A DNA stretch of 64,000 nucleotides. Source: Nitrospirota bacterium (GTDB lineage Bacteria; Nitrospirota; JACRHJ01). The translations under genes were made by a program, and so were the position numbers. The notes under the pieces are model-generated. The model made no database searches. It was not told the origin of the DNA and saw only the letters and a list, made by a program, of their open reading frames with translations. This document shows positions 4,078-59,804 of the stretch, piece by piece. How positions within the stretch are numbered: the stretch's first letter is position 1; each line of letters opens with the position of its first letter. The stretch is taken from assembly GCA_049801375.1 (NCBI GenBank), contig JBARKJ010000042.1:28703-92702 (forward strand), written 5' to 3'.

Positions 4078-4614
4078 TTAGAAGAAGCTCTCCGGGACGT
4101 TTATCACGTCGTCCGGCTTGACAGGGTCGCTCATATTGGCGCTCATCGTGGACTCTTGGCCGTCCACCCTGCGAGTTATTTTTGTCCTGCCGGGGGCCGC
4201 TTTATCAGTCAGGCCCCCTGCTAGGGCAATGGCCTTAAGCACAGTCGTATCGGGATCCGCCTTGTACGAGCCGGGTTTTTGTACCTCTCCGGTTACATAA
4301 ACCACGTTCTTCGTCTCAGTGATCAGGATGTTGACATGCGGGTTCCGAATGTAGCCCTTGGACAGTAGATTGGCTATCCTCTTCTCCGCTTGGTGCACGC
4401 TAAGCCCGCCAACATTGGCTTCCCCTATGAGCGGGAAGGTTATTGTACCTTCTGAACTTACTAACGTTTCGGTGGTGAGGTCGTCATTGCCGTAAACGGT
4501 AATCTTCAGGAGGTCACCATTGGAAATGGCGGAGTCCTGCGCCATTCCCGAAATCGGGAACAGGTATAAAAACATTATAGCGAAAGCCATTATGAAGCGG
4601 TATCGTAGTTTCAT
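4078..4614 (-). CDS. Polysaccharide export protein, Wza-like periplasmic (Poly_export/SLBB domains)
   Basis: 178 aa. It has a signal peptide (MKLRYRFIMAFAIMFLYLFPISGMA). The motifs LKITVYG...LSSEGTITFPLIGEANVGGLS and NVVYVTGEVQKPGSY...TVLKAIALAGG are typical of Wza/GumB family exporters. Confidence 0.65.
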   Translation of the reverse strand: MKLRYRFIMAFAIMFLYLFPISGMAQDSAISNGDLLKITVYGNDDLTTETLVSSEGTITFPLIGEANVGGLSVHQAEKRIANLLSKGYIRNPHVNILITETKNVVYVTGEVQKPGSYKADPDTTVLKAIALAGGLTDKAAPGRTKITRRVDGQESTMSANMSDPVKPDDVINVPESFF

Positions 4615-4731
4615 TATGTTTTAAATATATAATGAGATTCATTAGGTTTGTCAAATCCCGTTAATTAAAATTAATTCCGTTTTAATAATTCCTTAATGAA
4701 AACTTGTTATAATAGTACCTAATATCATCAG

Positions 4732-5577: not shown

Positions 5578-5644
5578 CGTTAAAGTTTTAGTTCCATAAA
5601 AATTGCACCACGGTTGTCTCGGTTTTTAGGTGAGTCAAAAAGGG

Positions 5645-8477: not shown

Positions 8478-10741
8478 ATCAGCCTCTTAATCACTTCCAG
8501 AAGGTTAGACTGGTCGAAGCTGCTCTTCACTACATAGGCATTCGCCCCAACGTCGATTCCTCTTTCCCTGTCCTCACGCGATTCGAGGGCTGTCACCAGC
8601 ACTACAGGAATATCTGAAAGCATTTTGTCGGCCCGTATATTCGACGTAAGGTCCAGTCCATTCATTCTCGGCATGTCTATATCCGAGACCACAATCTCGA
8701 ATCGGCCCGTCTTCAAAAAGGTTAATGCGTCTATTCCGTCCACCGCCGTCTGAACATCGTATCCCGCGGCTTCAAGAATATTTTTCAACAGCGTCCGCGC
8801 GGTTATCGAATCCTCAACGACAAGTACGGGCTTTCTCTCTGCCGGCGTTTCCTCCGGAACCGAAGGAGCCTCAATGCCGGGCGATATCCTGACTGCGGAT
8901 TTCAGCAGATCGGATATATTAAGCACGGGCACGACCTCTCCCGTTCCGAGCACTGTTGCACCTGCAATATTACGCACCCTGGCAAGCTGCCTGCCGAGAT
9001 CTTTCACGAGCACTTCCTGCTCATGAAGGATATTGTCGACGCCAAAGGCTATGCGGTTATTAGCCGAGCCAAGCACCGCCGCCTGCATAAATTCCGAACC
9101 GGTCCCGCCTTTTTCCTTGCGCGGCAGTTCCAGTACCAAGCGGAGGGGAATAAGAGGAATTGTCCGGCCTTCAACGGTAATCGTCTCCCTGCTTTCCACG
9201 GTCCTTATTTCATCCCTGCCGACCCTTACCGTGCGGTCAAAGCCTTTAATCGGGATAATAAAACGGCGGTCGTCTATCTGCACGAGGACTCCTCGGAAAG
9301 TTGCAAGGGTCAGAGGCAGAAGGATGCGAAATGTAGTTCCTTTCCCTTCTGTGCTATCGCAGGATATCGAACCGCCCAGCTTTTCCACCTTGTCCTGCAC
9401 AATGGCAAGCCCGAGGCCACGTCCCGAAATATCGGTAATCATCGGGCTTGTCGTCACGCCCGAGTGGAATATGAGGGAAAGCAGCTTTGCCTTGTCCACC
9501 TCGCCCGCTTCCTCCTGCGAAAGAATGCCGAGCCGAACCGCGGAGTTTTTGATTTTTGAGGCGTCCAAGCCTGCTCCGTCGTCCGATACAACGATCTCAA
9601 CCGATTTACCCTCCTTATGAGCGACATCGATTGAGACGGTGCCTGCGGGAGGCTTGTTTATGGCGGTTCGTTCTTGCGGCTTTTCTATTCCGTGGTCGAT
9701 GCAGTTTCGGACAAGATGGATGAGAGGGTCCCGCATTTCATCGAGAATGCGCCGGTCGATCTCGATATCGCCTCCGCGCATTGCGAGCGACGCCTCCTTG
9801 CCCCGGTCATGCGAAAGATCTCGGACGACCTTCGGCATAATTTCAAGAAGCGATGAAAACGGGAGCATCGAGACGGACTTCAAGTCTTCGAGAAGGCTGT
9901 TGGCCATTGTGGCCACAGATCGATTGTCATGCTCCGAAGCCTCGCCGATTGAGACGAGAGTGGCGTGAAGTTTCGCAACGCGTTCACCCTTAGCATCCAA
10001 AAAATCCAGCATCTTCTCCACTTGCGTTCTTTTGCCGCTTAATTCCCCCCAATCTACAATTTTTCGCATTTCGGGCCGGATTTTTTCCCACTCTTTTTTC
10101 AGAGTTGCTGCCTCCGCGATTATTTCATGCAGTTCCGAGATGCGCTGGGCCATCAGCTGCTTTACGGAAAGAAACCCTTCGGCCTGAAGCAGTATGGAAT
10201 CGAGCCTCTGCTTGGATATTCTCATCGTCTCTGATGCTGCCCTCTGGACCGGAGACGCCGCTTCCTCGGAAGAACGATTAGAAAGCTCCGCATGCGTTTC
10301 ATCATCTGCCCGGCTTAGCTTTGGGGGATGCGTTCCTTTTGCCGCTCTGTCAAGCTCATGGATTATGTCTTTAATCCTAGCCTTGCCGGGAGGATGGCCC
10401 TCTTCTCCGATAGAGGATAAAAGGCCTTCAAGTAAATTGACGGAGCTGTGAAGTAGATCCAGCAGTTCCCTGTCGGGCAAAATCTCTTTACGCTTTAGGG
10501 CGGAAAGGGTGCTTTCAAAGGACTGACAAAGGCTTTCAAAAACCGGGAGGTTTACCGCCCGCGCAGCTCCTTTCATGCTGTGGGATTCGCGGAAGACAGC
10601 CTCTATAATCTCCGCTTGCCTCTCAAGGGAAGGCGACTTCTCGATTTCGATTAATCCCGACGAGATCGCGGCGATATGCTCCGCCGCCTCGACCTTGAAT
10701 GTCGCCAGAAGTCTTTTTAAAAATTCGTCGTTTTTATCCAT
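8474..10741 (-). CDS. cheA: Chemotaxis histidine kinase CheA fused to a C-terminal receiver (CheA-CheY hybrid, WspE/FrzE-like)
   Basis: 755 aa. The Hpt domain has the HSMKG phospho-His box. The HATPase_c motifs are DDGAGLD and GRGLGLAIV. A CheW-like domain is followed by a C-terminal REC (VLVVEDS...DIDMPRMNG). Confidence 0.85.
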   Translation of the reverse strand: MDKNDEFLKRLLATFKVEAAEHIAAISSGLIEIEKSPSLERQAEIIEAVFRESHSMKGAARAVNLPVFESLCQSFESTLSALKRKEILPDRELLDLLHSSVNLLEGLLSSIGEEGHPPGKARIKDIIHELDRAAKGTHPPKLSRADDETHAELSNRSSEEAASPVQRAASETMRISKQRLDSILLQAEGFLSVKQLMAQRISELHEIIAEAATLKKEWEKIRPEMRKIVDWGELSGKRTQVEKMLDFLDAKGERVAKLHATLVSIGEASEHDNRSVATMANSLLEDLKSVSMLPFSSLLEIMPKVVRDLSHDRGKEASLAMRGGDIEIDRRILDEMRDPLIHLVRNCIDHGIEKPQERTAINKPPAGTVSIDVAHKEGKSVEIVVSDDGAGLDASKIKNSAVRLGILSQEEAGEVDKAKLLSLIFHSGVTTSPMITDISGRGLGLAIVQDKVEKLGGSISCDSTEGKGTTFRILLPLTLATFRGVLVQIDDRRFIIPIKGFDRTVRVGRDEIRTVESRETITVEGRTIPLIPLRLVLELPRKEKGGTGSEFMQAAVLGSANNRIAFGVDNILHEQEVLVKDLGRQLARVRNIAGATVLGTGEVVPVLNISDLLKSAVRISPGIEAPSVPEETPAERKPVLVVEDSITARTLLKNILEAAGYDVQTAVDGIDALTFLKTGRFEIVVSDIDMPRMNGLDLTSNIRADKMLSDIPVVLVTALESREDRERGIDVGANAYVVKSSFDQSNLLEVIKRLI

Positions 10742-10763
10742 CGGACTTTTTAGATTAAGTTCT

Positions 10764-12398
10764 TTATACCTTAAATTGGTCCACCAGTTGCTTGAGCTTC
10801 TGTCCGAGCTCGTGCAGGCCCCGGGCCGCGGTCTCGGTCTGTCTCGTGCCGGCGACGTTCTGCTCGCTGGCCAGCTTTATATTGTTCATCGCGGTGATGA
10901 CCTGTTCCATGCCCACGAGCTGCTGCTGGCTCGATGCGGCAATCTGCATCCCGGCCTGGGCGGCCTCCGCGATACTTGACTCCAGCGCCTTTATTGATTC
11001 GCCCGCCTGCGCCGATTGCCTAACGCCCTCGTCGACTGTCTTGCTCCCTTGTTCGGTCGCGAGCACGGCTGCGCCCGTCGCCTTTTGTATATCGTTCAGT
11101 ATGGTCCGCACCTGCGTGGTTGCCTGCTTCGACTGCTCGGCCAGGCTCCGCACTTCCTGCGCCACAACTGCGAAACCTTTGCCATGCTCGCCTGCCTTTG
11201 CGGCCTCGATAGAGGCGTTTACCGCAAGGAGGTTTGATTGCTCGGCCAGGTCGTTCACCGTGGAAATGATCTCACCTATCGCCTGGCTCTGCTCGCTCAG
11301 CCTCACGATGCTTTCCGCTATGGATTCCATCTGCTGCCGTATGCGGTTCATTTTCCCCACTGTTTCTTCCATCGCCTTCCCGCCGGTCTGGGAAACCTGC
11401 ACCGCCTTTTTGGCGGCTTCGGAGACATATTCCGCCTTCTGGTTCGAGACCTGAGCGGTCTGTTTGACTTCTTCCACGGTTGTCGTCGTCTCGTTCACCG
11501 CCGTCGCCGTCTCAGTCACGCTGGAGGCGACCTCGGTTGTGGAGGAGAGGATCTCACTGGCCGATGCCGCGAGGACGCTCACAGACTCCTGTATCCCGCG
11601 ATTCACCTCCCGCATGTTCCCGATCATCTTCCTGAATGTCCGCGCGAGATCGCCCACTTCGTCCTTACGGTCAGCGGTAGATACGACGACTGTCAGGTCG
11701 CCGGAAGCTATCTTTTCGGCGGTTTCTGATATCCCCTGCAACGGACCGGCAATAATCCGGCTCAAATAGATTGCAATCGCTGTGCCTATTATAACCACTG
11801 CGATACAGAGTACTGTAAGGATATTTAAATATAGACTCACATTCCGGCTGGATTCGGCTACGGCTGCCTTGGCGTCGCCTTCCGCTCCTACCACAAGCTC
11901 GTCGATAATGGACCCGATCTTTTCATTTCTGTCGGCCTGAATACCGGTCACCACGCCTTTTGCCTCATCGAACTTTCCCGCGAAAACCAATGGCATGACC
12001 TGGTTCTCTCTTGTATCGTTGAACGCCCTCCGTATCTCGTCGAACTCTTTAAGGCGGGCAATATGATTCGGCTCTGTTTCACGTTCGAGGACCTTTTGAA
12101 TCAATTCGTCATTATTCTTCACAAGCTCATCAGCCTTATTGCGTAAGGATGCGAGTTTCTGGGGGTCTTTAAGTACTAACATCGACAGAGTGGTTGACCT
12201 GATACTGTCCTGATTAAACCTGATATCCTGAAGGTCGACCACATTTGCAAATTCCACCTCGGATATTTTTCTTTGCAGGCTCTGCATCTGTTCGAGGTCC
12301 CTGTAAGCCAATACAAAAATAATTAAAAACAGGCCGATCTTGAACCCAAAGCTAAGAAAGAGTTTGGACCGGGTTTTAAGATTGACAAACCAGTTCAT
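10764..12398 (-). CDS. Methyl-accepting chemotaxis protein (two TM segments, periplasmic ligand-binding domain, HAMP, MA domain)
   Basis: 544 aa. TM1 is [10 protein letters not shown] periplasmic region of about 170 aa is followed by TM2 and HAMP. The signalling domain has the conserved tip [40 protein letters not shown]. Confidence 0.8.
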
Positions 12399-12412
12399 TT
12401 TTCCTCCTTGAA

Positions 12413-13042
12413 TTATATTTCTGACGGCTCTCCGTTTATCACGATCTTTTCGTCCGACAGAATTTTTTCGGCATCCAGCACAATCAGGCGGTCCTCCGTG
12501 ACACCCAAAAGATACTCCTCGCGCACGCCCGTAAGCGTGGGAATAACCTGCTGCAGTCCGGCAAGCCGCAGGAGCCGAAAGCCGACGATCACGTCCGCAA
12601 GAACGCCGAATTCCATGGCGTCCGACTTGAGGATGATTACTTTGTTAAAATCGCCTAAGCCTTTCTCGGGGAGTCCGAATAATTTCTTAAGGTCTATTAC
12701 CGAAATGATCTGTCCGCGCACATTGATGATACCAAGGACGAATGGCGGGGTGCACGGAACCGGCGTCAAATCGTTCAGAGGGTACACCTCGCGCACGTGC
12801 GAAGCATCTATGGCGTATCTTTCCTGGGCGAGGAGGAATTCAATGATCTCTATCTCTTCTCCGGCGCCTTTTTTTTCTGGTTCCTTCGCAAGCGCCCGGG
12901 CCCTCTGCCGGAGGATATTCTTCTTTTCTTCAGGACCGGGCACCCATCCCTGTTCGATCACAGACTTGACCCTTTCCAAGCGTTCATGGATTTCATTCCA
13001 GTCGGTGGCCGAGTTAGTGTCGTGTGCCTTTGTGTCATTCAT
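12413..13042 (-). CDS. cheW: CheW-like coupling protein with an N-terminal extension of about 55 aa
   Basis: 209 aa. The CheW core reads [13 protein letters not shown]...[15 protein letters not shown]. It overlaps the cheR stop, so the two are translationally coupled. Confidence 0.75.
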
Positions 13043-14583
13043 GCTATAGATCCCTCAGTCATTGACCTGCTGATAATCTCTACCATCCTCCGCGCTGTAA
13101 TGCCCTCGGACTCCGGAAGGATATTGTCAGGCGGGTATTTTCGCAGGATCGACAGGGCGTTTTCGAAATGCCGCTCGGACTCCCTCTTCATTCCCTTCCG
13201 CCTGGCGAGATTGCCAAGGGCAAAGTGGGCGAGGACAAAGTCCTGATCAAGGTAAAGGGCGCGGTTGAGGCCAATTTTCGATTCGTCTTCCAGCCCCATC
13301 TCAAGCAGAACGGCAGCCAGCAAATATTGATAAGCGGGGTTAAGTTTGCCTGCAGCTATCGCCCTTTCACAAAGTTCGCGAGCCTCTGCGAGCCGTCCCT
13401 GGTTTGCATATATACGTGAAAGAAGCGCCAGCGCGGGAGCGTTTTTGTCAGCGCCGGCTAATAAAGCTGATATTTTCTGCTCTGCTTCCGCATAGCAGCC
13501 CTTTTCAAATAATTTAAGCGCCTCGGCATAAGGGTCTGCATTTTCCCTTGAAAAAGGAGGGACAACGGACGGAGCAGCGTTCAACGTGACTTCTCCTTCA
13601 TCCATTACATCCAAAGGAGGAGTAAAGATATACTCCTCTCCTCCGGCGGGAGCGGACGGCGGCAAGGGGATTTCGCTTATCGTTCTCTCAGTAACAGGAC
13701 AGATTGTGCCCTCGTATTTGAATGCACCTTCCCTTGCAACTTCGTTTTTCCAAAGAGTCGATACTGAAAATTGCGCATGTGATAACGGCAAAGACTGAAG
13801 CGAGGATATTTCTGCCGGACTCACCATTAGCCAGCCGCCTTTTACAAGACAGCGATAAAGTTTTCCGACAACCTTCCTTTGGCTTTTCTCGGTGAAGTAC
13901 ATAAGCACATTTCGGCAAAGTATGACATCCATTCCGTTAGTATTGTTCGTGAGGGACGGATAGGCGTCCTCCGAGAGGTTGAGATAAGAGAAGGTCACCG
14001 CCTTCCGCACCTCGGGGAGCAGCTCAAAAATATCTTTGCCGGACTTTCTGAAAAACTCCTCCTTTACTCCCGAGGGAACATCTCGGAAAGACCATTCACC
14101 GTAAATTCCACTCGCCGCCTTCTGGAGAAAAGAGGCGTTTATGTCGGTCCCGAGGACTGTAATGTTCCAGTCTTTGATATCCGGAATCAGCCTGCGAAGG
14201 AGCATGGCGATTGAATACGGTTCCTCCCCCGTGGCGCAGCCGGCCGACCATATCCGAAGAAACCTTCCAGCCTCGCGTCTCTTCCGGATTATTTCGGGCA
14301 GGATCTCCTCTTCAAGGAGCTTGAAACTTTTTTTGTCGCGGAAAAAATACGTTTCGCCCACAGTGAGCTGGCGCGCCAGAGTCTCGATCTGCTGCTTCGT
14401 CAAAGGAGACAGCAGTAGCCATCTGGCGCATGCCTCCGCGTCCTCGAACCCGAAATCGAGGGCCGCACTCTTTAGGCCCCGCTCCAGGTCGCTCCACCGT
14501 TCCTCCGGAAAATGAAGACCTATCCGTTCAGCTATATAATCGCTAAGCCGGCCAAGAAGCTCTTTGGAGGTTTTTCCGGTCAT
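13039..14583 (-). CDS. cheR: Chemotaxis protein methyltransferase CheR fused to C-terminal TPR repeats (FrzF-like)
   Basis: 514 aa. The N-terminal CheR domain reads YFFRDKKSF...RIWSAGCATGEEPYSIAML...VLCRNVLMYF. The C-terminal 200 aa or so are TPR-like helices (YAEALKLFEKGCYAEAEQ..., LLSRIYANQGRLAEAREL...). Confidence 0.8.
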   Translation of the reverse strand: MTGKTSKELLGRLSDYIAERIGLHFPEERWSDLERGLKSAALDFGFEDAEACARWLLLSPLTKQQIETLARQLTVGETYFFRDKKSFKLLEEEILPEIIRKRREAGRFLRIWSAGCATGEEPYSIAMLLRRLIPDIKDWNITVLGTDINASFLQKAASGIYGEWSFRDVPSGVKEEFFRKSGKDIFELLPEVRKAVTFSYLNLSEDAYPSLTNNTNGMDVILCRNVLMYFTEKSQRKVVGKLYRCLVKGGWLMVSPAEISSLQSLPLSHAQFSVSTLWKNEVAREGAFKYEGTICPVTERTISEIPLPPSAPAGGEEYIFTPPLDVMDEGEVTLNAAPSVVPPFSRENADPYAEALKLFEKGCYAEAEQKISALLAGADKNAPALALLSRIYANQGRLAEARELCERAIAAGKLNPAYQYLLAAVLLEMGLEDESKIGLNRALYLDQDFVLAHFALGNLARRKGMKRESERHFENALSILRKYPPDNILPESEGITARRMVEIISRSMTEGSIA

Positions 14584-15083
14584 TTACCTTGTTCCTTTAA
14601 GGCATCGTTCAGGGCTTTTTCCTCATCGAGAGAAAGGAACCGGTCGAGATCGTGGATAAGGACCATGCCGTCTGCAAGCTTCGCCACGCCTTCAATGTAT
14701 TCCATTTGGGGCATTATGGTCTCAGGGGCTGTAATCCATTCGTCCGGATGTTCAATGACTCCCTCCACATTGTCTGCAATAAGAGCAACCGCCCTCCTCG
14801 CCGTCTGCGCGACGATCAAATGATCGCTCAGGCCAATGTCCCGCTCGGGCAGCCTAAAACGTTTGCGGACATTCACCAGCGGGATAACATTTCCATGCAT
14901 GTTGACTATGCCTGTTACAATATCGGGGGCCTTGGGCAGAGGCGTTGATTCGACTGCGCGGACAACCGTCTGCACGGTGGTAAGGTGAAGCGCATAACGT
15001 TTGTCATCGAGACTAAAGACCAGTAGCAGCACGGATCTTCCCTTGTCAGATTTTTCGTTCTTTGGGTCCTTAAAAAATATCAC
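14580..15083 (-). CDS. cheW: CheW coupling protein
   Basis: 167 aa. The core reads LLLVFSLDDKRYALHLTTVQTVV...GIVNMHGNVIPLVNV. It is the first gene of the che operon. Confidence 0.8.
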   Translation of the reverse strand: MIFFKDPKNEKSDKGRSVLLLVFSLDDKRYALHLTTVQTVVRAVESTPLPKAPDIVTGIVNMHGNVIPLVNVRKRFRLPERDIGLSDHLIVAQTARRAVALIADNVEGVIEHPDEWITAPETIMPQMEYIEGVAKLADGMVLIHDLDRFLSLDEEKALNDALKEQGK

Positions 15084-15366
15084 ATAGATGCTTGAATTTC
15101 AAGGTAAATTACGGGAACTGAATTCTAAACCGTTGTGAACTACTGGCAGTCATAGTTTACTGCGATACTTCCAGAAAGGGTAGCCAGCCCCCGTGCAATT
15201 ATCCCAATACCCGTTACGATTGAAGTCGAGGGGGTCTTCACGCTTTGAAGACTGCGATACGCCGGACGCTTTCCGGCGGAGCAAGTACCAGAGGTGCGAG
15301 ATGGAGGAGCTATACGACCGCGCTGCCGGCGTTGCCTACGTCCACCGCAATGTAGGTGTAAGCCTT

Positions 15367-16059
15367 TTAGAAATTGGATTTAAAACGATAACCGACTCCG
15401 GGCTCGGTAAGGATATAACAAGGGCGGTCCAGATCCGGTTCGAGCTTGTGCCTGAGCTTGCTGATAGTTACGCGCAGGATATGCGGCTGCTCAAGGTATG
15501 TTTCACCCCATATCTGGCTGAGTATTTGGCGGTGCGTGAGCACCTTACCGGCATGAGTGACCAATACCTTCAGCACGTCGTATTCCGTCGGCGTAAGCTG
15601 TAACTCCTTCCCTTTCACGAGAACCCTGCGCTTGGGCAGGTCCACTTCAAGCTCATCAATTTTATATACGGGCGCCGGGGCCTCCTGCACCGAATGCCTC
15701 AAGGCCACGCGCATCCTCGCCAACAGCTCCCCTATGCCAAAAGGTTTCGTAACGTAATCATCTGCCCCGGCGTCGAGGGCGGAAATCTTATCGCTTTCGC
15801 GTTCCCGTACCGTTAGTACGATTACGGGTGTCTTGGCCCACTCACGAAGACGATGTATGACCTCCAAACCGTCCATGTCCGGGAGCCCCAGGTCGAGGAT
15901 GATGAGGTCCGGCCGGAGTTGGGCTGCCGCCGCGAGCGCCTCCTGGCCAGTGCCCGCCTCATGGAGCGAGAACTCCCCCCCGCTAAGCGCGTTCCTCAGA
16001 AAGCGTTGGATGGCCTTCTCGTCGTCTACTATAAGGACTTTCGGCAGGTTCTCGCTCAC
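15367..16059 (-). CDS. kdpE: KDP operon response regulator KdpE (OmpR family)
   Basis: The REC reads VLIVDDEKAI...ILDLGLPDMDG and the winged-helix C-terminus reads LTPTEYDVLKVL...VGYRF. A GTG start at 16059, 10 nt after the kdpD stop, is preferred. The ATG at 16125 would overlap kdpD by 56 nt. Confidence 0.8.
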   Translation of the reverse strand: MSENLPKVLIVDDEKAIQRFLRNALSGGEFSLHEAGTGQEALAAAAQLRPDLIILDLGLPDMDGLEVIHRLREWAKTPVIVLTVRERESDKISALDAGADDYVTKPFGIGELLARMRVALRHSVQEAPAPVYKIDELEVDLPKRRVLVKGKELQLTPTEYDVLKVLVTHAGKVLTHRQILSQIWGETYLEQPHILRVTISKLRHKLEPDLDRPCYILTEPGVGYRFKSNF

Positions 16060-51810: not shown

Positions 51811-52281
51811 TCAAGGGCTTTTTTCCAGGACGGACCGGATATCGGAGAGCCACATTATAACGGCGTTATCCCCCGGCGATTCATAGTAATTCTTCCGAAG
51901 GCCAGCCTCCTGAAATCCCATGGATTTATAAAGGCTTATAGCCGCATGGTTCTTTTCCCGGACTTCCAGCGTAGCCGCCCGCGCGCCCCTTTCATAGCAG
52001 AACCGAAGACCCTCCCGCACCAGTTTTGAGGCTACCTTCAGCCTTCTGTAACGCGTCCGGACCCCAAGGTTCAGGATGTGCATCTCGTCGATAAGCATCC
52101 AGAAACATATGAAGCCGACAAGGAAGCCGGACGGCTCGCGCGCAAGAAGTATAAAAGAATAATCCCTGTTCAGTTCGTCAAGAAACAGTTCCTCGGTCCA
52201 GGGCCAGGAGAATATTTCCCGCTCCAGTTCCATGACCTCCGTGAGGTCGTCCGACCCCATTTCGCTTATCGTTATCTCCAT
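51811..52281 (-). CDS. GNAT-family N-acetyltransferase, RimI-like
   Basis: 156 aa. The acetyl-CoA-binding motif is RRLKVASKLVREGL...ARAATLEVR. It is adjacent to tsaB, as rimI typically is. Confidence 0.6.
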   Translation of the reverse strand: MEITISEMGSDDLTEVMELEREIFSWPWTEELFLDELNRDYSFILLAREPSGFLVGFICFWMLIDEMHILNLGVRTRYRRLKVASKLVREGLRFCYERGARAATLEVREKNHAAISLYKSMGFQEAGLRKNYYESPGDNAVIMWLSDIRSVLEKSP

Positions 52282-52356
52282 GCGATATACCTACCAGAAA
52301 ACGCGGGAATGTTCAAGGGCCTTGAAAAGGAGGGCGAAATCTGGCATTCTAAATTC

Positions 52357-52914
52357 ATGGACATATCAAATTTCATATTGGACAAGGACGATTCCCTCCT
52401 GCTCATCGTGGACATCCAGGAACGTCTGGCGTCTGTAATGAAGTACCGCGAGCAGGTAGCAAAAAACGTGAACCTGCTTGTCGAGCTTGCGCGGATGCTG
52501 GACATCCCGGTGGTGGTATCGGAGCAGTACCCGAAAGGCCTCGGCCACACAGTCGCTGAAATAAAGGAGACGCTTCCCGTTTACGCGCCGATTGAGAAAA
52601 TATCATTCGACTGCTGCGGCGAGCAAGGCTTCGTTTCCGAGATTAAAAAACGCGGGAGAAATAAAATAATCGTCACCGGCATGGAGAGCCATATCTGCGT
52701 GCTCCAGAGCGTCCTGGGCCTGCTTGGTTCCGGTTATGTTCCCCACGTCGTATCGGACGCCGTATGCTCGCGTACGAAAGAGAACTGGAAGACCGGTATA
52801 GAGATGATGCGAGACACGGGAGCGGTAATCACTTGCACGGAGGCGGCGCTCTTTCAGCTGCTGAAAGAGGCAGGGACGGAAGAATTCAAGGCGATATCGA
52901 AATTAATTAAATAA
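52357..52914 (+). CDS. Isochorismatase-family cysteine hydrolase
   Basis: Start at MDISNFILDKDDSLLLIVDIQ (ATG 52357). The catalytic-triad context is D19, K and C in GMESHICVLQS. It is about 186 aa. Confidence 0.7.
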   Translation: MDISNFILDKDDSLLLIVDIQERLASVMKYREQVAKNVNLLVELARMLDIPVVVSEQYPKGLGHTVAEIKETLPVYAPIEKISFDCCGEQGFVSEIKKRGRNKIIVTGMESHICVLQSVLGLLGSGYVPHVVSDAVCSRTKENWKTGIEMMRDTGAVITCTEAALFQLLKEAGTEEFKAISKLIK

Positions 52915-52937: not shown

Positions 52938-53618
52938 TTAACCCACCTTCTCCTCCGCGTCCGACTTCCGTATATATAACGGCGTCAGCGACATCGGGTC
53001 CGCGGCATTTCCCGCCTTTATATCCTTCAGTCCCCTGAAGGCCACCGTCGCGCCCGATGGGTATCCGTATGCCTTCGGAGCGAAAAGCGCCTGACAGCAT
53101 AACTGTCCTCCCAGAAGTTCCCGGTAGACGTACGCACCCTCGCCAAGGAAAACCGTAGGCTCCTCTATCGCGTCCACCAGTTCGTCCGGAGTAATCACGG
53201 ACGGCGGCAGGATGACCCTTCTCACCGTATCCGTTATCTTGTAAATTGCGCAATATACCATCTTTTTCCGGGCGTCCAATACTGGCGCGACCTGGTGGCG
53301 GCAATACGGAAGGTTATCCGCCAAAGCCTCCAGGCTGTTCACCGCCGCGACAGGTTTCCCCGAAGCGTACGCCATCGCCTTAACCGCCGCAATACCGATG
53401 CGAAGCCCCGTGAACGAGCCGGGGCCGACGCTTACCGCAAAGCCGTCGATGTCGTCCAGCGTCAGGCGCGCGGATTTCAGGAGCGTGTCGATATGCTCCA
53501 TCAGCCGCTCCGAATACGTCAGCGAGATATTCGTCCGCATCTCCGCAATAAGCAGCTCATCGTCCACTATCCCCACCGCGCCCATCATGGTGGAGGTGTC
53601 TATGCCTAAAATTTTCAT
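52938..53618 (-). CDS. tsaB: tRNA threonylcarbamoyladenosine biosynthesis protein TsaB (YeaZ)
   Basis: 226 aa. MKILGIDTST...AVSVGPGSFTGLRIG is the Kae1/YgjD-like fold without the metal-binding His pair. Confidence 0.8.
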   Translation of the reverse strand: MKILGIDTSTMMGAVGIVDDELLIAEMRTNISLTYSERLMEHIDTLLKSARLTLDDIDGFAVSVGPGSFTGLRIGIAAVKAMAYASGKPVAAVNSLEALADNLPYCRHQVAPVLDARKKMVYCAIYKITDTVRRVILPPSVITPDELVDAIEEPTVFLGEGAYVYRELLGGQLCCQALFAPKAYGYPSGATVAFRGLKDIKAGNAADPMSLTPLYIRKSDAEEKVG

Positions 53619-53690: not shown

Positions 53691-54929
53691 TTATACCCGC
53701 CCGATAACCAGCGCCGCGTTCATCCCGCCGAAGCCGAAGGCATTGGACAGCACGTAATCCACTTTCGCCTTGCGTCCGGTATTCGATATGTAGTCCAGGT
53801 CGCAGTCCGGGTCCGGGTCGGTGAGGTTCAGTGTCGGCGGGAGGTATTCGTTCTGAATCGCCAGTGCGCAGATGGCGGCTTCTATCGCGCCGGTCGCGCC
53901 CAGTGGATGCGCGTGGAAGGGCTTCGTCCCGCTGATGGGGACTTTATACGCGTGTTCGCCAAGGGCTCTTTTTATGGCGGTAGTTTCGTTTTTGTCGTTC
54001 ATCATTGTAGAACTTCCGTGGGCGTTGACATAGCCTATCTGTTCCGGTTTAATACCCGCCTGACCGAGCGCAATTGTAACAGCACGCGCCGCGCATTCGC
54101 CGTCGTCGCGCGAAGAAGTCATGTGGTAGGCGTCGTTGGTGAGGCCGTAGCCAAGGACCTCCGCATATATCCTCGCGCCGCGCTCCATCGCATGACCCAT
54201 CTCCTCCAGAATCAGCGCCGCGCTCCCCTCGCCCATTATAAACCCGTCGCGGCCGCCGTCGAACGGGCGACACGCGCCTTCCGGGTCGTCGTTCCTTGTA
54301 GTCATTGCCTTGATTAACGTGAACGAGCCGAATGTAAGCGGAGAGAGAGGCGCTTCCGCCCCCCCCGCGATAAGCACGTCGGCACGGCCCGCGCGGATCA
54401 TCTCGAACGCCTCTCCCACGGCCATCGTCCCCGATGAGCAGGAGTTCGAATTGGTGATATTCGGGCCGGTCAACCCAAGCTCGATAGCTATATGGCAGGA
54501 GGACGACGCGCCAAAGACAAGTGTGGCGAGGGCAGGATTTACGCCCTTCAGGCCCTTCTCCCGGTACACGTCGTGCTGGCTCTCCGCGAATGCTAAGCCG
54601 CCCAGGGCGGAGCCTATGACGATGCCTGTCTGCGGGTTGCGTGAGACATCGAGATTAGCGTCCTCGATTGCCATCCGGGCGGATGCGACCGCGAACGCCG
54701 CAAAGCGGTCGATCCTTTTCAAAACCTTTCCGCGTACGAAATCGGAGGCGCTGAAGGCCTTTATCTCGCCCGCGACTCTCGTCCTGAAGCCGGAGGCGTC
54801 GAATGAGGTTATCCCGCTTATCCCGGAGCGGCCCTGGAGAATACCGTCCCAAAGCCCGGAAACGCCAAATCCTATTGGCGTCAACGCGCCGATGCCGGTA
54901 ATTGCGACCCTTCTCCTGCCGTCAGGCAA
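53691..54929 (-). CDS. fabF: 3-oxoacyl-ACP synthase II
   Basis: 412 aa. The Cys-His-His active site is present (SSCSSG, YVNAHGSST, NAFGFGGMN). Confidence 0.9.
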   Translation of the reverse strand: MPDGRRRVAITGIGALTPIGFGVSGLWDGILQGRSGISGITSFDASGFRTRVAGEIKAFSASDFVRGKVLKRIDRFAAFAVASARMAIEDANLDVSRNPQTGIVIGSALGGLAFAESQHDVYREKGLKGVNPALATLVFGASSSCHIAIELGLTGPNITNSNSCSSGTMAVGEAFEMIRAGRADVLIAGGAEAPLSPLTFGSFTLIKAMTTRNDDPEGACRPFDGGRDGFIMGEGSAALILEEMGHAMERGARIYAEVLGYGLTNDAYHMTSSRDDGECAARAVTIALGQAGIKPEQIGYVNAHGSSTMMNDKNETTAIKRALGEHAYKVPISGTKPFHAHPLGATGAIEAAICALAIQNEYLPPTLNLTDPDPDCDLDYISNTGRKAKVDYVLSNAFGFGGMNAALVIGRV

Positions 54930-55395
54930 CTTGTTCTCTCCCGCCGCCTTCGGCGATTTCCTTTATTTTTTTCAGTGTCTTTGAAGCGATATTATGGACG
55001 AAGAAACGGCCGACGATATATTTTGCTACAAACGTCCCAAGGACAGGCCCCCAATCCGGGTCGAACTCGTGGATTATCCTGACCTGCGTCACCTTCCCCC
55101 GCTCAGTCGTCTTCTCTTTGATGATCCATTCCACGTACATTCCGGTGGTGGGGCCGCCGATATGCCGGAAGATTATCTTGCCCATCTCAGGCAGAGGTTT
55201 CTGGATGGATATCCATCTCACTGGTATGCCGTCCCGGCTCGCCGCCATCTCCACCACTCTGTGGTCTCCCTCTTCTTTAAGGAGCGTCACCCGCCGGTAA
55301 TGAGGGAGCCTCGCCGGCCATTTCAGTACGTCCCAGGCAAGGTTATAAACATCTTCCGCCGACGCGTTTATGCTGATGGTATTTTCAGTGAACAC
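54922..55395 (-). CDS. SRPBCC-superfamily ligand-binding protein (Coq10/polyketide-cyclase-like START fold)
   Basis: 157 aa. The stop overlaps the fabF start by 8 nt. The helix-grip signature reads ...WDVLKWPARLPHYRRV...VEWII...; it is similar to Coq10-type quinone or lipid binders. Confidence 0.6.
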   Translation of the reverse strand: MFTENTISINASAEDVYNLAWDVLKWPARLPHYRRVTLLKEEGDHRVVEMAASRDGIPVRWISIQKPLPEMGKIIFRHIGGPTTGMYVEWIIKEKTTERGKVTQVRIIHEFDPDWGPVLGTFVAKYIVGRFFVHNIASKTLKKIKEIAEGGGREQVA

Positions 55396-55442
55396 GGCGT
55401 CCTCTCCTCGTCTCCACGTTCTTCCAGTCTATCACCCGCAAC

Positions 55443-56666
55443 TCAATAAATTCCCCACGTCCGCCCGGAATCCATATCGTCAAAAATTTTGCTGTACTCC
55501 TCCAGAACTCCGGTCCTGAACTCTTTCTCGACCCTTACGGCTTTACGCATGTAGCGCTCGCAGTGACCGCAGTTGGAACAGTCGGTCGTACGGCAGTCTT
55601 TGTCCCTGAACCCCCCTAAAAACCCGTCCAGCTTTTTATTGTCGATATAAACCGGCTCGCCTTCCGGAGCGCCAAGAAGTCCGCGCTTTAGCGCGAGCCC
55701 CCTTATTTTCATAAGCCTCGTGAGCTTCACATCTCCGGGGCGGAAAAAATATTTCCAGAAATGCGCGGCCTTTTTAATCCCGCCAGCCGGCTTTTCTTTA
55801 TAGCCGTATGGCTGGATGAGGTCCAGCAGGTTTCCCTCGAAGCTTCCTCCGGCGTATGCCCGTATCCTTTTCAGCATCGCCGCCGCCGGAGCGCCCCGTT
55901 CGAGTATCTTAAAGTTATTATAACCTAAAATCCGGTATTGTCCCAGGTCCTCCGGGCGGATGAATTCCGAACGCAGGAAGTTCACCGGCTCCCGGAGCTT
56001 CAGACAAGAGCACTTTAGGGCGCACCAGTCTATCATAAACCCCCCGCTCCGGTGCCCTTTCTGGGAAGCGTGGGACAGGTTTACCATGTGCTGGCCGGAT
56101 AGCGGGCAGAACATCAGGCAGTTGGAGTTCGCGATAAGCTGAAGCTCCAGGCCGACGGCTTTCCGGATTGCCGTGAGTAGCTTGAAGTTCCTGTTCACGG
56201 AAATGGATTCCAGCGTAATGCAGTCCGCGCCCATCTCCTCCCAGAACTTAGCCTTGGCAATGGAATCCACCCGCGCATAAACCCCAACTCGTACCGTCAG
56301 GGAGGGGTTATGCCGCTTTATCACGGGCAGGATCGAGGGCAGGGATATCGTGACGCTCCGGGCGCCTATGGACTCCGCGAAATCCAGCGCACCCCGCAGG
56401 GCCTTTTGGCCTTTCCGCGTATACTCCATATTGTCCATGCAGGCGGCGTTTAAGAGGTAGTTGAAGCCGATGCCTTTTTTCTTCGCGGTTTCAATATAGT
56501 TACGAAGGGCGCGGGCCGAGAGGGGAGCGAGCATGAACGAGGCCCTGCCGCCGCCGACAGGGTCTGAGGGGAGCTTGCCGAAAAGCTCCGAGACCGGCAG
56601 CCCGGAAAGTCCCTCTAAAAATCCTTCCTCGAAGCAGGCCGCGACGGAAAATTTTAGATCGGGCAT
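55443..56666 (-). CDS. Peptidase U32-family protein with Fe-S-type Cys clusters (UbiU/UbiV/RlhA-like O2-independent hydroxylase family)
   Basis: 407 aa. The TIM-barrel-like core reads RSVTISLP...GADCITLES...ELQLIANSNC. The cysteines are C-x3-C...C-x3-C-x-C, plus a C-terminal CRTTDCSNCGHC motif (C-x4-C-x2-C-x2-C). The family call is made by eye at moderate confidence. Confidence 0.5.
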   Translation of the reverse strand: MPDLKFSVAACFEEGFLEGLSGLPVSELFGKLPSDPVGGGRASFMLAPLSARALRNYIETAKKKGIGFNYLLNAACMDNMEYTRKGQKALRGALDFAESIGARSVTISLPSILPVIKRHNPSLTVRVGVYARVDSIAKAKFWEEMGADCITLESISVNRNFKLLTAIRKAVGLELQLIANSNCLMFCPLSGQHMVNLSHASQKGHRSGGFMIDWCALKCSCLKLREPVNFLRSEFIRPEDLGQYRILGYNNFKILERGAPAAAMLKRIRAYAGGSFEGNLLDLIQPYGYKEKPAGGIKKAAHFWKYFFRPGDVKLTRLMKIRGLALKRGLLGAPEGEPVYIDNKKLDGFLGGFRDKDCRTTDCSNCGHCERYMRKAVRVEKEFRTGVLEEYSKIFDDMDSGRTWGIY

Positions 56667-57457
56667 CAGATGAACCCCACAAGGGACATCCTCCAGAAAT
56701 GCCGCCTTCTGACCATGAATTCCTTTAACCCCGAAGCCTGGGCGAGCCTTTTCATCTCGCCTGGAGTAAAGGACCTGCGGACGGATAACGGCCCGTCATA
56801 GCGGGTGTACTTATTGCTCGTGAAGAGCCTGGAGATTATCCAGATGAGCGCCCAGGGGATAAGGTTTCGCCTCAAGTCCCCCGCGATTACGGCAAAACGT
56901 GAAACACGCGCCATCTCCTTGAGGAAACGTAACGCGTCTTCCTCGCTCAGATGGTGCAGGACCAGCGAGCAGTGGACAATATCGAAACTATCGTCGGGAA
57001 AAGGGAGACTGAGGCCATTCGCCAGAGCGTATGAAATTTCATGAAACTCACGGTTCCAGGCCCTCCCTTGCCCGAGGACGGATAAATTTAAATCTGCCGC
57101 GACGGCAAGTACCTTGAAGCCCATCTTCCCGGCATGTCTTGCCATCGCGGCGGTTACGTCCGCCGAACCTGCAGCAACATCCAGGATTCTCAGATCTCGC
57201 CCGGCCTCATTTTTGTATTTCAAGCCCCACTTGGTACTATTTTTCACCTCGTTTATTTGCCATTCTGCCCCACTTTTTCTTTTTACTTCCCTCCGGCGAA
57301 GGACGAGATCCAAATCGCGCAGGGCGGAATTTATCCCTCCCAGCCGCAGATTCACCTGGCGGATGTCCATCAGGCTGCCTGATAGCTGACGCTCATCCTG
57401 CGCCTCTAAAGGCAGGTCGAGTAGCTCCGGGTCCGTACGCCTGCGGGGCGCGAACAT
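56666..57457 (-). CDS. Class I SAM-dependent methyltransferase, UbiE/MenG-like
   Basis: 263 aa. Motif I is RILDVAAGSADVTAAMA (compare UbiE LDLAGGTGD). The post-I acidic and hydrophobic motifs are present. Its 1-nt start/stop overlaps with mdh upstream and with the U32 gene downstream. Confidence 0.65.
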   Translation of the reverse strand: MFAPRRRTDPELLDLPLEAQDERQLSGSLMDIRQVNLRLGGINSALRDLDLVLRRREVKRKSGAEWQINEVKNSTKWGLKYKNEAGRDLRILDVAAGSADVTAAMARHAGKMGFKVLAVAADLNLSVLGQGRAWNREFHEISYALANGLSLPFPDDSFDIVHCSLVLHHLSEEDALRFLKEMARVSRFAVIAGDLRRNLIPWALIWIISRLFTSNKYTRYDGPLSVRRSFTPGEMKRLAQASGLKEFMVRRRHFWRMSLVGFI

Positions 57458-58389
57458 CAGAAACCGGTGGTTTCCTGGCCCTTCTTGACCGCCTCGACAG
57501 ACTTGTCGAAAGCCTCGCGCTCCTCTTCCGTAAGAGTAACCTGGAGTATCTCTTCCACACCGTCCATGCCCAGGATAACCGGCACACCTGTGAATGCGCC
57601 GGAGACGTTATATTCTCCTTCCAGGAGGACGGAACATGGCAGTATCCTCTTCTGGTCGAGAAGTATCGCCTGCGCCATGGCTGCTGCGGCTGCGGCCGGG
57701 GCATAATAGGCACTGCCGGTCTTGAGCAGCGAGACTATCTCTGCTCCGCCGTTCCTGGTCCTTTCAACAACGGAATCGATGGACTCCTTGTCCATAAGTT
57801 CGGTAATGGGTATCCCGGCGACGGTGGTATAACGGGGGAGCGGAAGCATCTGGTCGCCATGCCCGCCCAGAACAAACGCCTGGATGCTGTCCGCGGAGAT
57901 GCCAAGCTCGATGGAGATGAATGTACGGAACCTTGCGCCGTCCAGCACGCCCCCCATCCCGATGACGCGCTCCTTGGAGAAGCCGCTGACTTTCCACGCC
58001 ACGTAGGCCATGACGTCCATGGGGTTGGTCACGACTATTATCTTGGCATCAGGTGAGAGAGGCGCGGCGGCCTTCGTGACTTCGGATACGATTTTGACGT
58101 TCGCGGCCAGCAGGTCGTCCCTGCTCATTCCGGGCTTGCGGGCCATCCCGGCCGTGATGATTATGAGGTCTGAGCCGGCAGTTTCATCATAGGTGTTCGT
58201 CCCGACGATATCTCCGCTTATTCCCACAATCGGCGCGGACTCAAGGAGGTCGAGGCCCTTTCCCTGGGGCACCCCCTCCACCACGTCCACCAGCGCCACG
58301 TCGCCCAGGCGCATTTCCAGCATTTTTTGGGCCACGGTGGCTCCGACATTACCGGCGCCAATTACCGTTATTTTGTTTCTTTTCTGCAA
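57457..58389 (-). CDS. mdh: Malate dehydrogenase (LDH-like, NAD-dependent)
   Basis: 310 aa. It has [10 protein letters not shown], the catalytic His in VLGGHGDQM and the Arg for substrate binding. Confidence 0.85.
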
Positions 58390-58407: not shown

Positions 58408-59676
58408 TTACGGTTTCGTGATTTTTACGCTTCCAATCTTCCTCTCATCCATCTCAAGCACTTCAAATTTCAATTCCTTGTATTTCAGGGTCTCGCCAGG
58501 GTGGGGCATCCTGCCGAAAAGCCCGAAGACGAAGCCTCCGATGGTGTTAAAGTCCTTTGACTGGATGTTTATCCCCGTCTCCTTGCTCACCTCATCGAGG
58601 TCGGCGGCGCCTGATACAACGAAGTTCTTCTCGTCGACTATCTGGACTTCGCTCTCCTCCCTGTCGAACTCGTCGTGTATGGAGCCGACTATTTCCTCCA
58701 GCAGGTCTTCGAGCGTTATAAGCCCGGCCGTGCCGCCGTACTCGTCTATGACGATGACCATCTGTATCTTCTGGTCCTGCATCTCCGTAAGGAGTTCCCG
58801 TACCCTCTTTGTCTCCGGGATGAAATAAGCCGGCCGGACCATTCTTTTTATTGTATCATTTTCATCCAGTTCGCCGCGGGATAATGCGATAACCAGATCT
58901 TTTACATAAAGGACGCCCTGCACATCGTCCACGGATTCCTCGATTACCGGATAACGTGAATGCCCGTGCTCCGCCACGAGGGAAAGCGCTTCCGAGACCT
59001 TCGCGTCGTTAGGGATAGAGATTATCTCCGTCCTCGGGCGCATGGCCTCAAGGGCAAGGGTATCGCCGAACTCGAATACCTTGTGGAGCATTGCCTTTTC
59101 CTCCACGTCCAGCGCGCCCTCCTCCTGCCCTATGGATATTATAGCCTTTATCTCGTCCTCGGTCACGAAAGGCGATTTCTCCACCTTTCCGCCCAACAGC
59201 CTGATAATCACATTGGTAACGCTGGTAAAAACCCAGACGATTGGATGCATCAGGGTTATGACAAATTCCATCGGCCTGGCAACCATAAGCGCCACCCGCG
59301 AGGCGTTGGAGGCGGCAAATGTCTTTGGAGTTATCTCGCCGAACATGACGATGAAGACCGTCATTACGACCGAGGCGATCACCGTTACTGGCCGGTATGC
59401 CGGGAAAAGAGATATGGCGAGCGCGGTGCCCAGGGAGGATGCCAGGATTATAAAGAAGTTTTCCGTAAGGAGTATGGTGCCGAAAAGCCTGCCGTGCTCC
59501 TCCCTTATCCTCTGGACCGATTTGGCGTTCGGGTTCCCTTTCTCCACCATGCTTCTTATCCGAAGACGGTTGACTGAGATCAACGCCGCCTCGGAGCTGG
59601 AGAAAAAGGCCACGAACAAAACGCATATTACGATGATTATAATGCTCAGAACGGGGGGGATTGCCAGCGATTCCAT
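58408..59676 (-). CDS. CNNM/CorC-HlyC family transporter (DUF21 + CBS pair + CorC_HlyC)
   Basis: 422 aa. The N-terminal 4-TM DUF21 is followed by tandem CBS domains and the C-terminal transporter-associated domain. Confidence 0.8.
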   Translation of the reverse strand: MESLAIPPVLSIIIIVICVLFVAFFSSSEAALISVNRLRIRSMVEKGNPNAKSVQRIREEHGRLFGTILLTENFFIILASSLGTALAISLFPAYRPVTVIASVVMTVFIVMFGEITPKTFAASNASRVALMVARPMEFVITLMHPIVWVFTSVTNVIIRLLGGKVEKSPFVTEDEIKAIISIGQEEGALDVEEKAMLHKVFEFGDTLALEAMRPRTEIISIPNDAKVSEALSLVAEHGHSRYPVIEESVDDVQGVLYVKDLVIALSRGELDENDTIKRMVRPAYFIPETKRVRELLTEMQDQKIQMVIVIDEYGGTAGLITLEDLLEEIVGSIHDEFDREESEVQIVDEKNFVVSGAADLDEVSKETGINIQSKDFNTIGGFVFGLFGRMPHPGETLKYKELKFEVLEMDERKIGSVKITKP

Positions 59677-59804
59677 TTACTCCTCTTGCCATTTTCCAAA
59701 AAAACGAAGGGGCGCAAGAATCTTACGCCCCATCCCTTGCTGCGATTTTAAAATTATAGCATAACAACATAATTTTTTTAATAAAAAAATACTTTCGGCA
59801 TATC

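Follow-up and report, generated by a model that had tools for sequence, protein, structure and literature searches.

Introduction

Two groups of described systems bear on the locus considered here, a minus-strand block in a 64,000-nucleotide stretch of Nitrospirota DNA (contig JBARKJ010000042.1, positions 28,703 to 92,702; hereafter the window, numbered from its first letter) that encodes a class I S-adenosylmethionine (SAM) methyltransferase (MT), a U32-like protein (U32L), an SRPBCC protein and a FabF-like ketosynthase (KS). The first group is represented by UbiU and UbiV, iron-sulfur (Fe-S) proteins that are required for O2-independent hydroxylation of the ubiquinone ring using prephenate (PMC6747719, PMC10990095), and that carry the motifs CX6CX16CX38C and CXnCX12CX3C, respectively (PMC6747719); TrhP, another U32 protein, also depends on prephenate (PMC6599085). 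The second group consists of operons that tailor alkylresorcinols. The hidABC operon of planctomycetes and cyanobacteria encodes an MT, an FAD oxidoreductase and a type III polyketide synthase (T3PKS), and the srs operon of Streptomyces and the pkq operon of mycobacteria are its counterparts in other gene orders (PMC10896814, PMC9927152). Their products are hierridins, alkylquinones and polyketide quinones, and the operons of Streptomyces griseus and mycobacteria modify the ring of the alkylresorcinol in the direction of an alkyl-benzoquinone (PMC10896814, PMC9927152). For Planctomycetota, the role of the FAD enzyme "remains to be elucidated" (PMC10896814).

An initial annotation of the window had described the block as an O2-independent quinone or lipid modification module coupled to mdh and fabF. 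In the current study, the pairing of MT with U32L and its fit to O2-independent modification of a lipid-like aromatic compound were sustained, whereas the implied isoprenoid quinone context was not. MT and U32L are conserved and translationally coupled, and are supported as a functional pair. On the basis of homologies, conserved motifs and the way in which genes substitute for one another across neighborhoods, we give an even chance to the proposal that MT-U32L-SRPBCC-KS represents, in anaerobic form, a widespread cassette of four genes for making and tailoring a phenolic lipid. The product would probably be an alkylresorcinol-like ring that undergoes hydroxylation and methylation on the way to an alkyl-benzoquinol or "polyketide quinone".

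Exchange of a flavoprotein for a U32-like protein

Contigs were scanned with a 12-sequence alignment, yielding 80 genome loci with U32L relatives at 44-95% identity from Nitrospirota, Geobacterales, Acidobacteriota, Planctomycetota, Bdellovibrionota, Binatota, Armatimonadota and others, and the neighboring open reading frames (ORFs) were searched with targeted profiles of each neighbor family. An MT lies within 300 bp of U32L at 33 of the 80 loci, a T3PKS gene within 6 kb at 40 and a B12-radical-SAM gene within the same distance at 31; SRPBCC and KS genes are near U32L at six loci, and T3PKS and SRPBCC are together near it at none. The gene order in Geomonas, Citrifermentans and Geobacter sp. 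DSM 9736 is B12-radical-SAM-MT-U32L-T3PKS, with a second B12-radical-SAM gene on the opposite strand, and that in other Nitrospirota is MT-U32L-ACP (acyl carrier protein)-KS-B12-radical-SAM-T3PKS-DUF2147. Neither ten Pfam-labelled neighborhoods nor the scanned neighbors contained a prenyltransferase, UbiD/X, Ubi, Men or Mqn gene. This lack, together with the T3PKS context, ties the U32L family to polyketide-derived lipids rather than to isoprenoid quinones, and the MMPL exporters and YceI lipid-binding proteins that some sister clusters carry are a sign of a lipid or quinone product.

A complementary scan of metagenomes for the SRPBCC protein returned at least 456 matches, of which 80 loci were examined. 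KS is directly downstream of SRPBCC at 47 of the 57 loci evaluable for this position, and a flavoprotein directly upstream at 29 of 58; U32L occupies the upstream position at two loci (L097 and L098), and no T3PKS occurs anywhere in the 80. Several loci that lack the upstream flavoprotein read SRPBCC-KS-MT-FAD oxidoreductase instead. L092 and L179, the latter from Entotheonellia, show the full order MT-FAD oxidoreductase-SRPBCC-KS; in L089, FAD oxidoreductase-SRPBCC-KS and MT are encoded on opposite strands. The FAD proteins of all three loci are homologues of the Paludisphaera operon enzyme over nearly their full length (E 4e-19 for L092 and 9e-17 for L089), and the FAD oxidoreductases of these loci and of Paludisphaera share TIGR02032 as their best NCBIfam model, just as the MTs of the swapped cassettes all score best on PRK06202. 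The result is a two-by-two pattern, in which MT is accompanied by either an FAD oxidoreductase or U32L and either is combined with T3PKS or with SRPBCC-KS, all four combinations being found. Among soil bacteria, the flavin-dependent form of the SRPBCC-KS cassette is widespread, with the order MT-FAD oxidoreductase-SRPBCC-KS at many metagenome loci.

Of 84 loci with U32L, a single one also has a flavoprotein homologue. Such an almost complete mutual exclusion within one slot parallels the exchange of UbiH/F/I for UbiU/V in ubiquinone synthesis (PMC6747719, PMC10990095) and is the main reason for regarding U32L as a putative O2-independent hydroxylase. The hydroxylase assignment depends on the operons described in PMC9927152, among which only that of S. 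griseus is explicitly said to encode one.

Individual loci add further variants. The single locus with both enzymes (L051, a Candidatus Binataceae metagenome-assembled genome (MAG), about 8756-11200) has T3PKS, FAD oxidoreductase and U32L side by side, and may belong to a facultative organism that keeps O2-dependent and O2-independent enzymes, by analogy with E. coli and ubiquinone. In Desulfuromonadales and one unclassified MAG (L073, L077, L078), the order is YceI-T3PKS-MMPL-x-U32L-MT; the MT of L078 is a genuine UbiE-family enzyme (TIGR01934, 165.6 bits against a cutoff of 158.35), and this combination with MMPL would point to a quinol-type ring and lipid export. In two Bdellovibrionales MAGs (L058 and L063, about 6088-15750), U32L-T3PKS-MT-YceI-MMPL is directly preceded by genes for an unknown protein of 440 aa and for a molybdoenzyme of the xanthine dehydrogenase family that contains 2Fe-2S domains; these two could serve as an electron acceptor or in a further oxidation step.

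A distinct U32 subfamily with two cysteine motifs

The assignment of U32L to the U32 superfamily was borne out by three comparisons, all of which place it in the U32 TIM barrel. The Pfam model Peptidase_U32 (PF01136) scores 25.0 bits (gathering cutoff 22.4), the family profile matches PDB 5D88 (the Methanopyrus U32 peptidase Mk0906) at E 8e-20, and the AF2 model (pLDDT 95) has the same structure as its top Foldseek match (E 2e-12, target-normalised TM 0.76). An NCBIfam scan of U32L matched no model. U32L is a true but very divergent member of the superfamily: within-family scores are 380-900 bits, whereas the family profile gives 45.7 bits on E. coli TrhP, 27.3 on RlhA, 21.8 on UbiU and -2.1 on UbiV, and U32L is therefore considered a subfamily of its own, comprising 434 clusters at 50% identity with E<1e-30. 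The matches to the E. coli proteins are confined to the barrel core (residues about 30-210 for the TrhP and RlhA matches), and U32L does not group with these RNA hydroxylases.

Among 131 family representatives, the barrel cysteines C76, C183, C187 and C219 are conserved at 89%, 99%, 99% and 100%, respectively, compared with only 63% for C215, and C183 aligns with the first cysteine of the canonical motif in RlhA and TrhP. The additional C-terminal C-x4-C-x2-C-x2-C motif that had been reported for this protein is present and is 97-98% conserved in the same representatives; here the family profile also matches a ferredoxin, though marginally (E 0.97). The proposed resemblance to the cysteine clusters of UbiU, UbiV and RlhA therefore holds insofar as the conserved sets are real, but their spacing differs and the protein lies outside the UbiU/UbiV group.

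Compared with UbiU/UbiV, U32L shares the TIM-barrel superfamily and conserved cysteines in the same part of the barrel, the first of them far upstream as in UbiV; both systems are paired with a ring methyltransferase and occur where aerobes use flavin monooxygenases, and both have two candidate cluster sites per functional unit. These sites would lie on one U32L chain, whereas the UbiU-UbiV heterodimer has one per subunit. U32L further differs in its context, which is polyketide rather than isoprenoid and lacks a UbiT partner, and in its hosts, which are Nitrospirota, Geobacterales, Acidobacteriota, Planctomycetota and others rather than ubiquinone-making Proteobacteria. The likeness to RlhA and TrhP extends to the barrel and its first conserved cysteine, but the C-terminal region and the genomic context are different.

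Two U32L loci have unusual surroundings. In a Thermodesulfobacteriota MAG (L060, about 4285-7900), two tandem U32L genes follow KS and are flanked by MMPL and B12-radical-SAM genes, an arrangement that recalls the UbiU-UbiV heterodimer. The only plasmid homologue (L094, Bacillus wiedmannii CP024685.1, 461412-462494; 36% identity, 94% coverage) belongs to an operon with genes for an MFS transporter, 4-amino-4-deoxychorismate mutase and two ATP-grasp enzymes, together with pabB, a pabA-like gene and aroF; the mutase, pab and aroF genes are makers of an amino analogue of prephenate. This context hints that the subfamily may use prephenate-type cosubstrates, and the reaction of the Bacillus enzyme might be an amination or aromatisation instead of a hydroxylation.

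A methyltransferase probably of the alkylresorcinol type

Profile searches contradict the earlier typing of the MT as UbiE/MenG-like. The Pfam model Ubie_methyltran reaches 54 bits over the SAM-binding core only (residues 87-186), whereas the curated quinone-methyltransferase models score 38-50 bits, far below their cutoffs of 158-420 (e.g., TIGR01934, 47.1 against 158.35; NF001240, 49.9 against 378). The best NCBIfam model, PRK06202, gives 122.3 bits and is itself below its cutoff of 243, as for a divergent member. A search of plasmids retrieved homologues from annotated MT-FAD oxidoreductase-T3PKS operons of Paludisphaera borealis and Sphingobium indicum; the former is 31% identical over the full length (E 3e-31) and scores 232 bits on PRK06202. 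By these scores, the window MT would belong to the PRK06202 family of alkylresorcinol-type operons. Since its N-terminus (RRTDPELLDLP) aligns with that of the full-length Paludisphaera homologue, the start at 57457 is supported. A lysine/arginine-rich insertion of about 30 residues (RRREVKRKSGAEWQINEVKNSTKWGLKYKNEAG; residues about 57-89, window 57190-57290) is absent in that homologue.

The locus and the hid/srs/pkq operons have in common PRK06202 as the best model of the MT, the position of the MT in first place and an oxidoreductase slot in second, and the sister clusters of U32L retain the T3PKS. They differ in that the flavin enzyme is replaced by U32L and, in the window, the T3PKS by SRPBCC and KS, as well as in the B12-radical-SAM genes that are frequent extras among U32L relatives.

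The SRPBCC-ketosynthase pair

The SRPBCC protein had been likened to Coq10-type quinone chaperones, but the aromatase/cyclases of type II polyketide synthases (PKSs) match its family profile far better: BexL is found at E 2.2e-20 (75.8 bits), WhiE at 4.6e-11 and TcmN and ZhuI at about 3e-7, compared with E 2.3e-3 (20.6 bits) for 1t17, which we take to be the Coq10-like protein CC1736. The invariant residues include W26, H32, Y33, R34, E49, R54, W61, H78 and H109, of which W26, Y33 and W61 are the equivalents of W28, Y35 and W65 in the WhiE chain; these three and R69 are presumably pocket residues of the aromatase/cyclases, with R69 assumed to be catalytic. Judged by its residues, the pocket looks more like a catalytic site than a passive lipid binder. 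The family is large, the metagenome scan having found at least 456 members where a word-indexed protein search gave only 58.

Although the KS resembles FabF, with C164, H304, H341 and K336 aligned to the Cys-His-His-Lys set of the E. coli enzyme, and is closer to Bacillus subtilis FabF than to the actinorhodin KS, the idea of an ordinary fabF gene has to be abandoned in favor of a dedicated, SRPBCC-linked subfamily. An N-x-[N/D/M]-S-C motif occurs in 112 of the 120 best KS homologues (E. coli FabF reads A-T-A-C), and metagenome KSs encoded downstream of SRPBCC genes carry the same N-x-N-S-C-type motif. SRPBCC-linked KSs score 735-911 bits against the window KS, whereas the ACP-linked KSs of T3PKS clusters have a T-A-C motif and score 312-325. 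Two homologues with 57-59% identity, picked for their long contigs and blind to context, are both encoded just downstream of an SRPBCC gene, one in a cassette with U32L and the other in a cassette with the flavoprotein, and the KS of L092 falls below the TIGR03150 cutoff (434 bits). A housekeeping role of the window KS is, on these comparisons, doubtful. A neighbor-joining tree in which SRPBCC-linked KSs were non-monophyletic was rejected, since its "generic FabF" comparators share the N-x-N-S-C motif and the two that were looked up adjoin SRPBCC genes.

The metagenome protein P0360 (JGI/ENA, 576 aa) is a natural single-chain SRPBCC-KS fusion, its KS part being 73% identical to that of the window. 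This fusion, the 8-nt overlap of the two genes and the common KS motif speak for a coupling of SRPBCC and KS. The pair resembles the type II PKS systems in that SRPBCC has the aromatase/cyclases BexL, WhiE, TcmN ARO/CYC and ZhuI as its best solved relatives and is coupled to a Cys-His-His ketosynthase; it departs from them in its own invariant His, Arg and Glu set and in the FabF-like N-x-N-S-C character of its KS.

Organization and conservation of the locus

All five ORFs of the block (mdh, MT, U32L, SRPBCC and KS) were confirmed on the minus strand at the coordinates in Table 1. The mdh/MT and MT/U32L junctions both read TGATG, in agreement with the 1-nt overlaps noted initially, and the 3' end of the SRPBCC gene runs 8 nt into KS, which begins with TTG and is preceded by a GGAGAG ribosome-binding site. 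Because a promoter-like site precedes the CNNM gene and no convincing terminator is found within the block, the genes from CNNM to tsaB may form one transcript.

Table 1. Genes and motifs of the block, in minus-strand order (window coordinates)
Feature	Position	Strand	Remark
CNNM/CorC gene	58408-59676	minus	First gene of the minus-strand run
mdh, malate dehydrogenase	57457-58389	minus	TIGR01763, 434 bits (cutoff 352)
Class I SAM methyltransferase (MT)	56666-57457	minus	PRK06202 best NCBIfam model, 122 bits
MT motif I, LDVAAGSADV	57155-57184	minus	Within MT
U32-like protein (U32L), 407 aa	55443-56666	minus	Pfam Peptidase_U32, 25 bits
U32L barrel cysteines C76 (56439-56441), C183 (56118-56120), C187 (56106-56108), C219 (56010-56012)	56010-56441	minus	Candidate ligands of a first Fe-S cluster
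U32L C-terminal motif C358-x4-C363-x2-C366-x2-C369, DCRTTDCSNCGHC	55560-55595	minus	Candidate site of a second Fe-S cluster or metal
SRPBCC protein, 157 aa	54922-55395	minus	Pfam Polyketide_cyc, 45 bits
FabF-like ketosynthase (KS)	53691-54929	minus	TIGR03150, 514.6 bits (cutoff 493.75)
KS active-site motif N-S-N-S-C164	54438-54452	minus	His at about 304 and 341
tsaB	52938-53618	minus	Downstream of KS

Uncultured Nitrospirota MAGs provide the closest relatives, whose U32L proteins are up to 95-96% identical. As the initial annotation had anticipated, the block is syntenic elsewhere: mdh-MT-U32L-SRPBCC-KS recurs in relatives (L002-L008) whose U32L is 77-96% identical, and MT-U32L-SRPBCC-KS without mdh in more distant Nitrospirota and Armatimonadota (L037, L076, L088, L090, L178). 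The recurrence of the same gene order shows that the block is not a chance arrangement. The Armatimonadota version (L076 and L178) has one extra gene separating U32L from SRPBCC; it encodes a coiled-coil membrane protein of about 280 aa that no Pfam model matches. Broken genes in two of the closest relatives, namely the MT of L002 (9208-10001, split into 71 and 185 aa) and the U32L of L008 (about 10001-11219, two ORFs), are probably long-read assembly indels and not real pseudogenes.

The coupling to mdh that had been proposed did not hold beyond the close relatives of the window. The gene adjoins MT only in L002-L008 (U32L identity at least 77%) and is absent or on the opposite strand in L037, L088, L090 and L178; L088 has a CNNM-mdh pair on the other strand, and in L037, L088 and L178 a B12-radical-SAM gene is upstream of the cassette in place of mdh. 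The mdh-MT overlap is thus real but recent and lineage-specific, and mdh is probably a co-transcribed neighbor rather than a functional part of the cassette.

Shortly before the CNNM/CorC gene begins, the minus strand has at 59709-59781 a strong promoter-like site (TTAAAA-17-TATAAT, TG-extended) and, after it, a GC-rich hairpin of 10 bp and a T-run; the arrangement could be a leader or attenuator. An Rfam scan of the 50-62 kb region of the window matched no RNA family. An isochorismatase-family ORF on the plus strand between rimI and tsaB (52078-52914) is also present in L002 and missing from more distant relatives, with no link to the cassette established. Ten large ORFs elsewhere in the window comprised only Kdp, chemotaxis, kinase and leuA-type genes in a Pfam scan.

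Proposed pathway and alternatives

In the proposed pathway, the FabF-like KS would extend an acyl-ACP with malonyl units without reduction, and the SRPBCC protein would fold and aromatise the chain, the two together doing the work of the T3PKS in sister clusters. U32L would then hydroxylate the ring without O2, with oxygen from prephenate by analogy with UbiU/UbiV and with its two conserved cysteine motifs relaying electrons as proposed for the two UbiU-UbiV clusters, and the PRK06202-type MT would methylate the ring or a ring hydroxyl. Ring formation is assigned to SRPBCC-KS because the pair occupies the T3PKS slot of sister operons and never co-occurs with T3PKS; it is the least secure step. 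The more specific proposal, in which a distinct two-cysteine-motif U32 subfamily serves prephenate-dependent polyketide or phenolic-lipid biosynthesis in anaerobes, here with a previously unrecognised ring-forming pair of SRPBCC and N-x-N-S-C KS in place of T3PKS, is offered tentatively, as a possibility against which the balance still leans.

Several observations count against the cassette reading. We infer its product and all of its chemical steps from comparison. Neither scaffold gene was found near U32L at 34 of the 80 loci, about half of which have truncated contig flanks, and those in Planctomycetota, Bdellovibrionota and Holophagales have neighbors that give no coherent alternative context. 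Fe-S binding by U32L is a prediction, and its first cysteine set (C...C-x3-C-x31-C) departs from the canonical C-x6-C-x15-C-x3/4-C. The displaced flavoprotein scores best as a member of the geranylgeranyl-reductase family, and the function exchanged between it and U32L could be something other than hydroxylation. As for the scaffold, the KS passes the FabF (KAS II) equivalog model, the arginine at WhiE position 69 is a glutamine (Q65) in the window SRPBCC, and the cassette has a single KS with neither chain-length factor nor ACP, unlike type II PKS systems. A phmmer search over all ORFs of the window found no T3PKS, but one could be encoded elsewhere in this genome.

This last point leads to an alternative that we consider unlikely but worth serious attention, namely that MT and U32L tailor an alkylresorcinol supplied by such a distant T3PKS while KS and SRPBCC only make or hold an unusual fatty-acyl starter. 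KS and T3PKS do coexist in the MT-U32L-ACP-KS-B12-radical-SAM-T3PKS clusters of other Nitrospirota, the window KS passes TIGR03150, and our view of this genome is restricted to 64 kb. However, the ACP-linked KSs of those clusters are of a different subfamily, by motif and by score, from the SRPBCC-linked ones, and SRPBCC-KS and T3PKS co-occur within 6-10 kb at none of 160 loci, the former standing in the slot of the latter. Moreover, polar residues are invariant at many positions of the SRPBCC protein, and the solved structures nearest to it are those of catalytic cyclases.

More improbable is the view that U32L is a prephenate-type-dependent or redox enzyme that carries out amination, reduction or aromatising decarboxylation instead of hydroxylation. 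The geranylgeranyl-reductase affinity of the displaced flavoprotein would fit a reaction of this kind, as would the Bacillus wiedmannii homologue beside 4-amino-4-deoxychorismate mutase, pabAB and aroF. Against this, the U32 proteins with an assigned function in the cited work (UbiU/V, RlhA and TrhP) are without exception connected with O2-independent hydroxylation (PMC6747719, PMC10990095, PMC6599085), and the S. griseus and Mycobacterium operons turn alkylresorcinols into benzoquinones, the former being described as encoding a hydroxylase (PMC9927152).

We regard as quite implausible the suggestion closest to the initial annotation, that an isoprenoid quinone of the ubiquinone or menaquinone type is hydroxylated and methylated without O2, with U32L acting as UbiU/V, MT as UbiE/MenG and SRPBCC as a Coq10 chaperone. 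The superfamily membership and conserved cysteines of U32L and the Ubie_methyltran match of MT agree with it, as does the Pfam family of the SRPBCC protein (PF03364), which we take to hold Coq10 as well. The more specific comparisons point away from it: the UbiE/MenG equivalogs are far below cutoff with PRK06202 the best model for MT, the U32L profile barely registers UbiU and UbiV, and SRPBCC is much nearer to the aromatase/cyclases than to the presumed Coq10-like 1t17. There is a single U32 gene rather than a U/V pair, and, as noted initially, no UbiT/SCP2 partner, the SCP2 family being missing among the Pfam families listed within the 10-kb flanks in L002, a relative with 96% identity. Finally, the recurrent context is T3PKS (40 of the 80 loci), and prenyltransferase, Ubi, Men and Mqn genes are lacking from the Pfam-labelled and scanned neighborhoods.

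That U32L is an RNA hydroxylase like RlhA and TrhP, or a true peptidase, placed in the cluster by coincidence, is scarcely credible: TrhP is the top E. coli U32 match of the family profile and databases label U32L a "collagenase-like PrtC family protease", but that match amounts to 45.7 bits in the barrel core against more than 380 within the family, and U32L is translationally coupled to MT and recurrently linked to PKS genes in at least six phyla.

Significance

O2-independent hydroxylases of the U32 family and alkylresorcinol-tailoring operons are each already known. A literature search found no report tying U32 proteins to T3PKS, alkylresorcinol or polyketide quinone biosynthesis, and the combination of U32 with phenolic lipids, the two-cysteine-motif subfamily and the SRPBCC-KS scaffold pair are, as far as can be told, all new. 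If the cassette reading is correct, the range of targets of O2-independent U32 hydroxylases, so far ubiquinone and RNA, would be extended to polyketide or phenolic lipids. To our knowledge, the chemistry of the U32 family has never been reconstituted in vitro, and the natural exchange of a flavin enzyme for a U32 protein offers a strong functional clue for the family. The cultured carriers of the sister cluster, namely Geomonas species, Citrifermentans bremense and Geobacter sp. DSM 9736, make the idea directly testable.

The four-gene cassette, which is common in soil metagenomes, would seem to form an aromatic lipid by means of a FabF-like KS and a cyclase, with no recognised polyketide synthase involved, and genome-mining tools may label its KS simply as fabF, as the NCBI FabF model does here. 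Alkyl-quinone-like lipids of mycobacteria serve as alternative electron carriers under hypoxia. The findings suggest that strict anaerobes of iron and sulfur cycling make lipids of this kind, possibly as a new electron carrier, and would, if true, provide Geobacterales, Nitrospirota and others with a route to non-isoprenoid "polyketide quinones".

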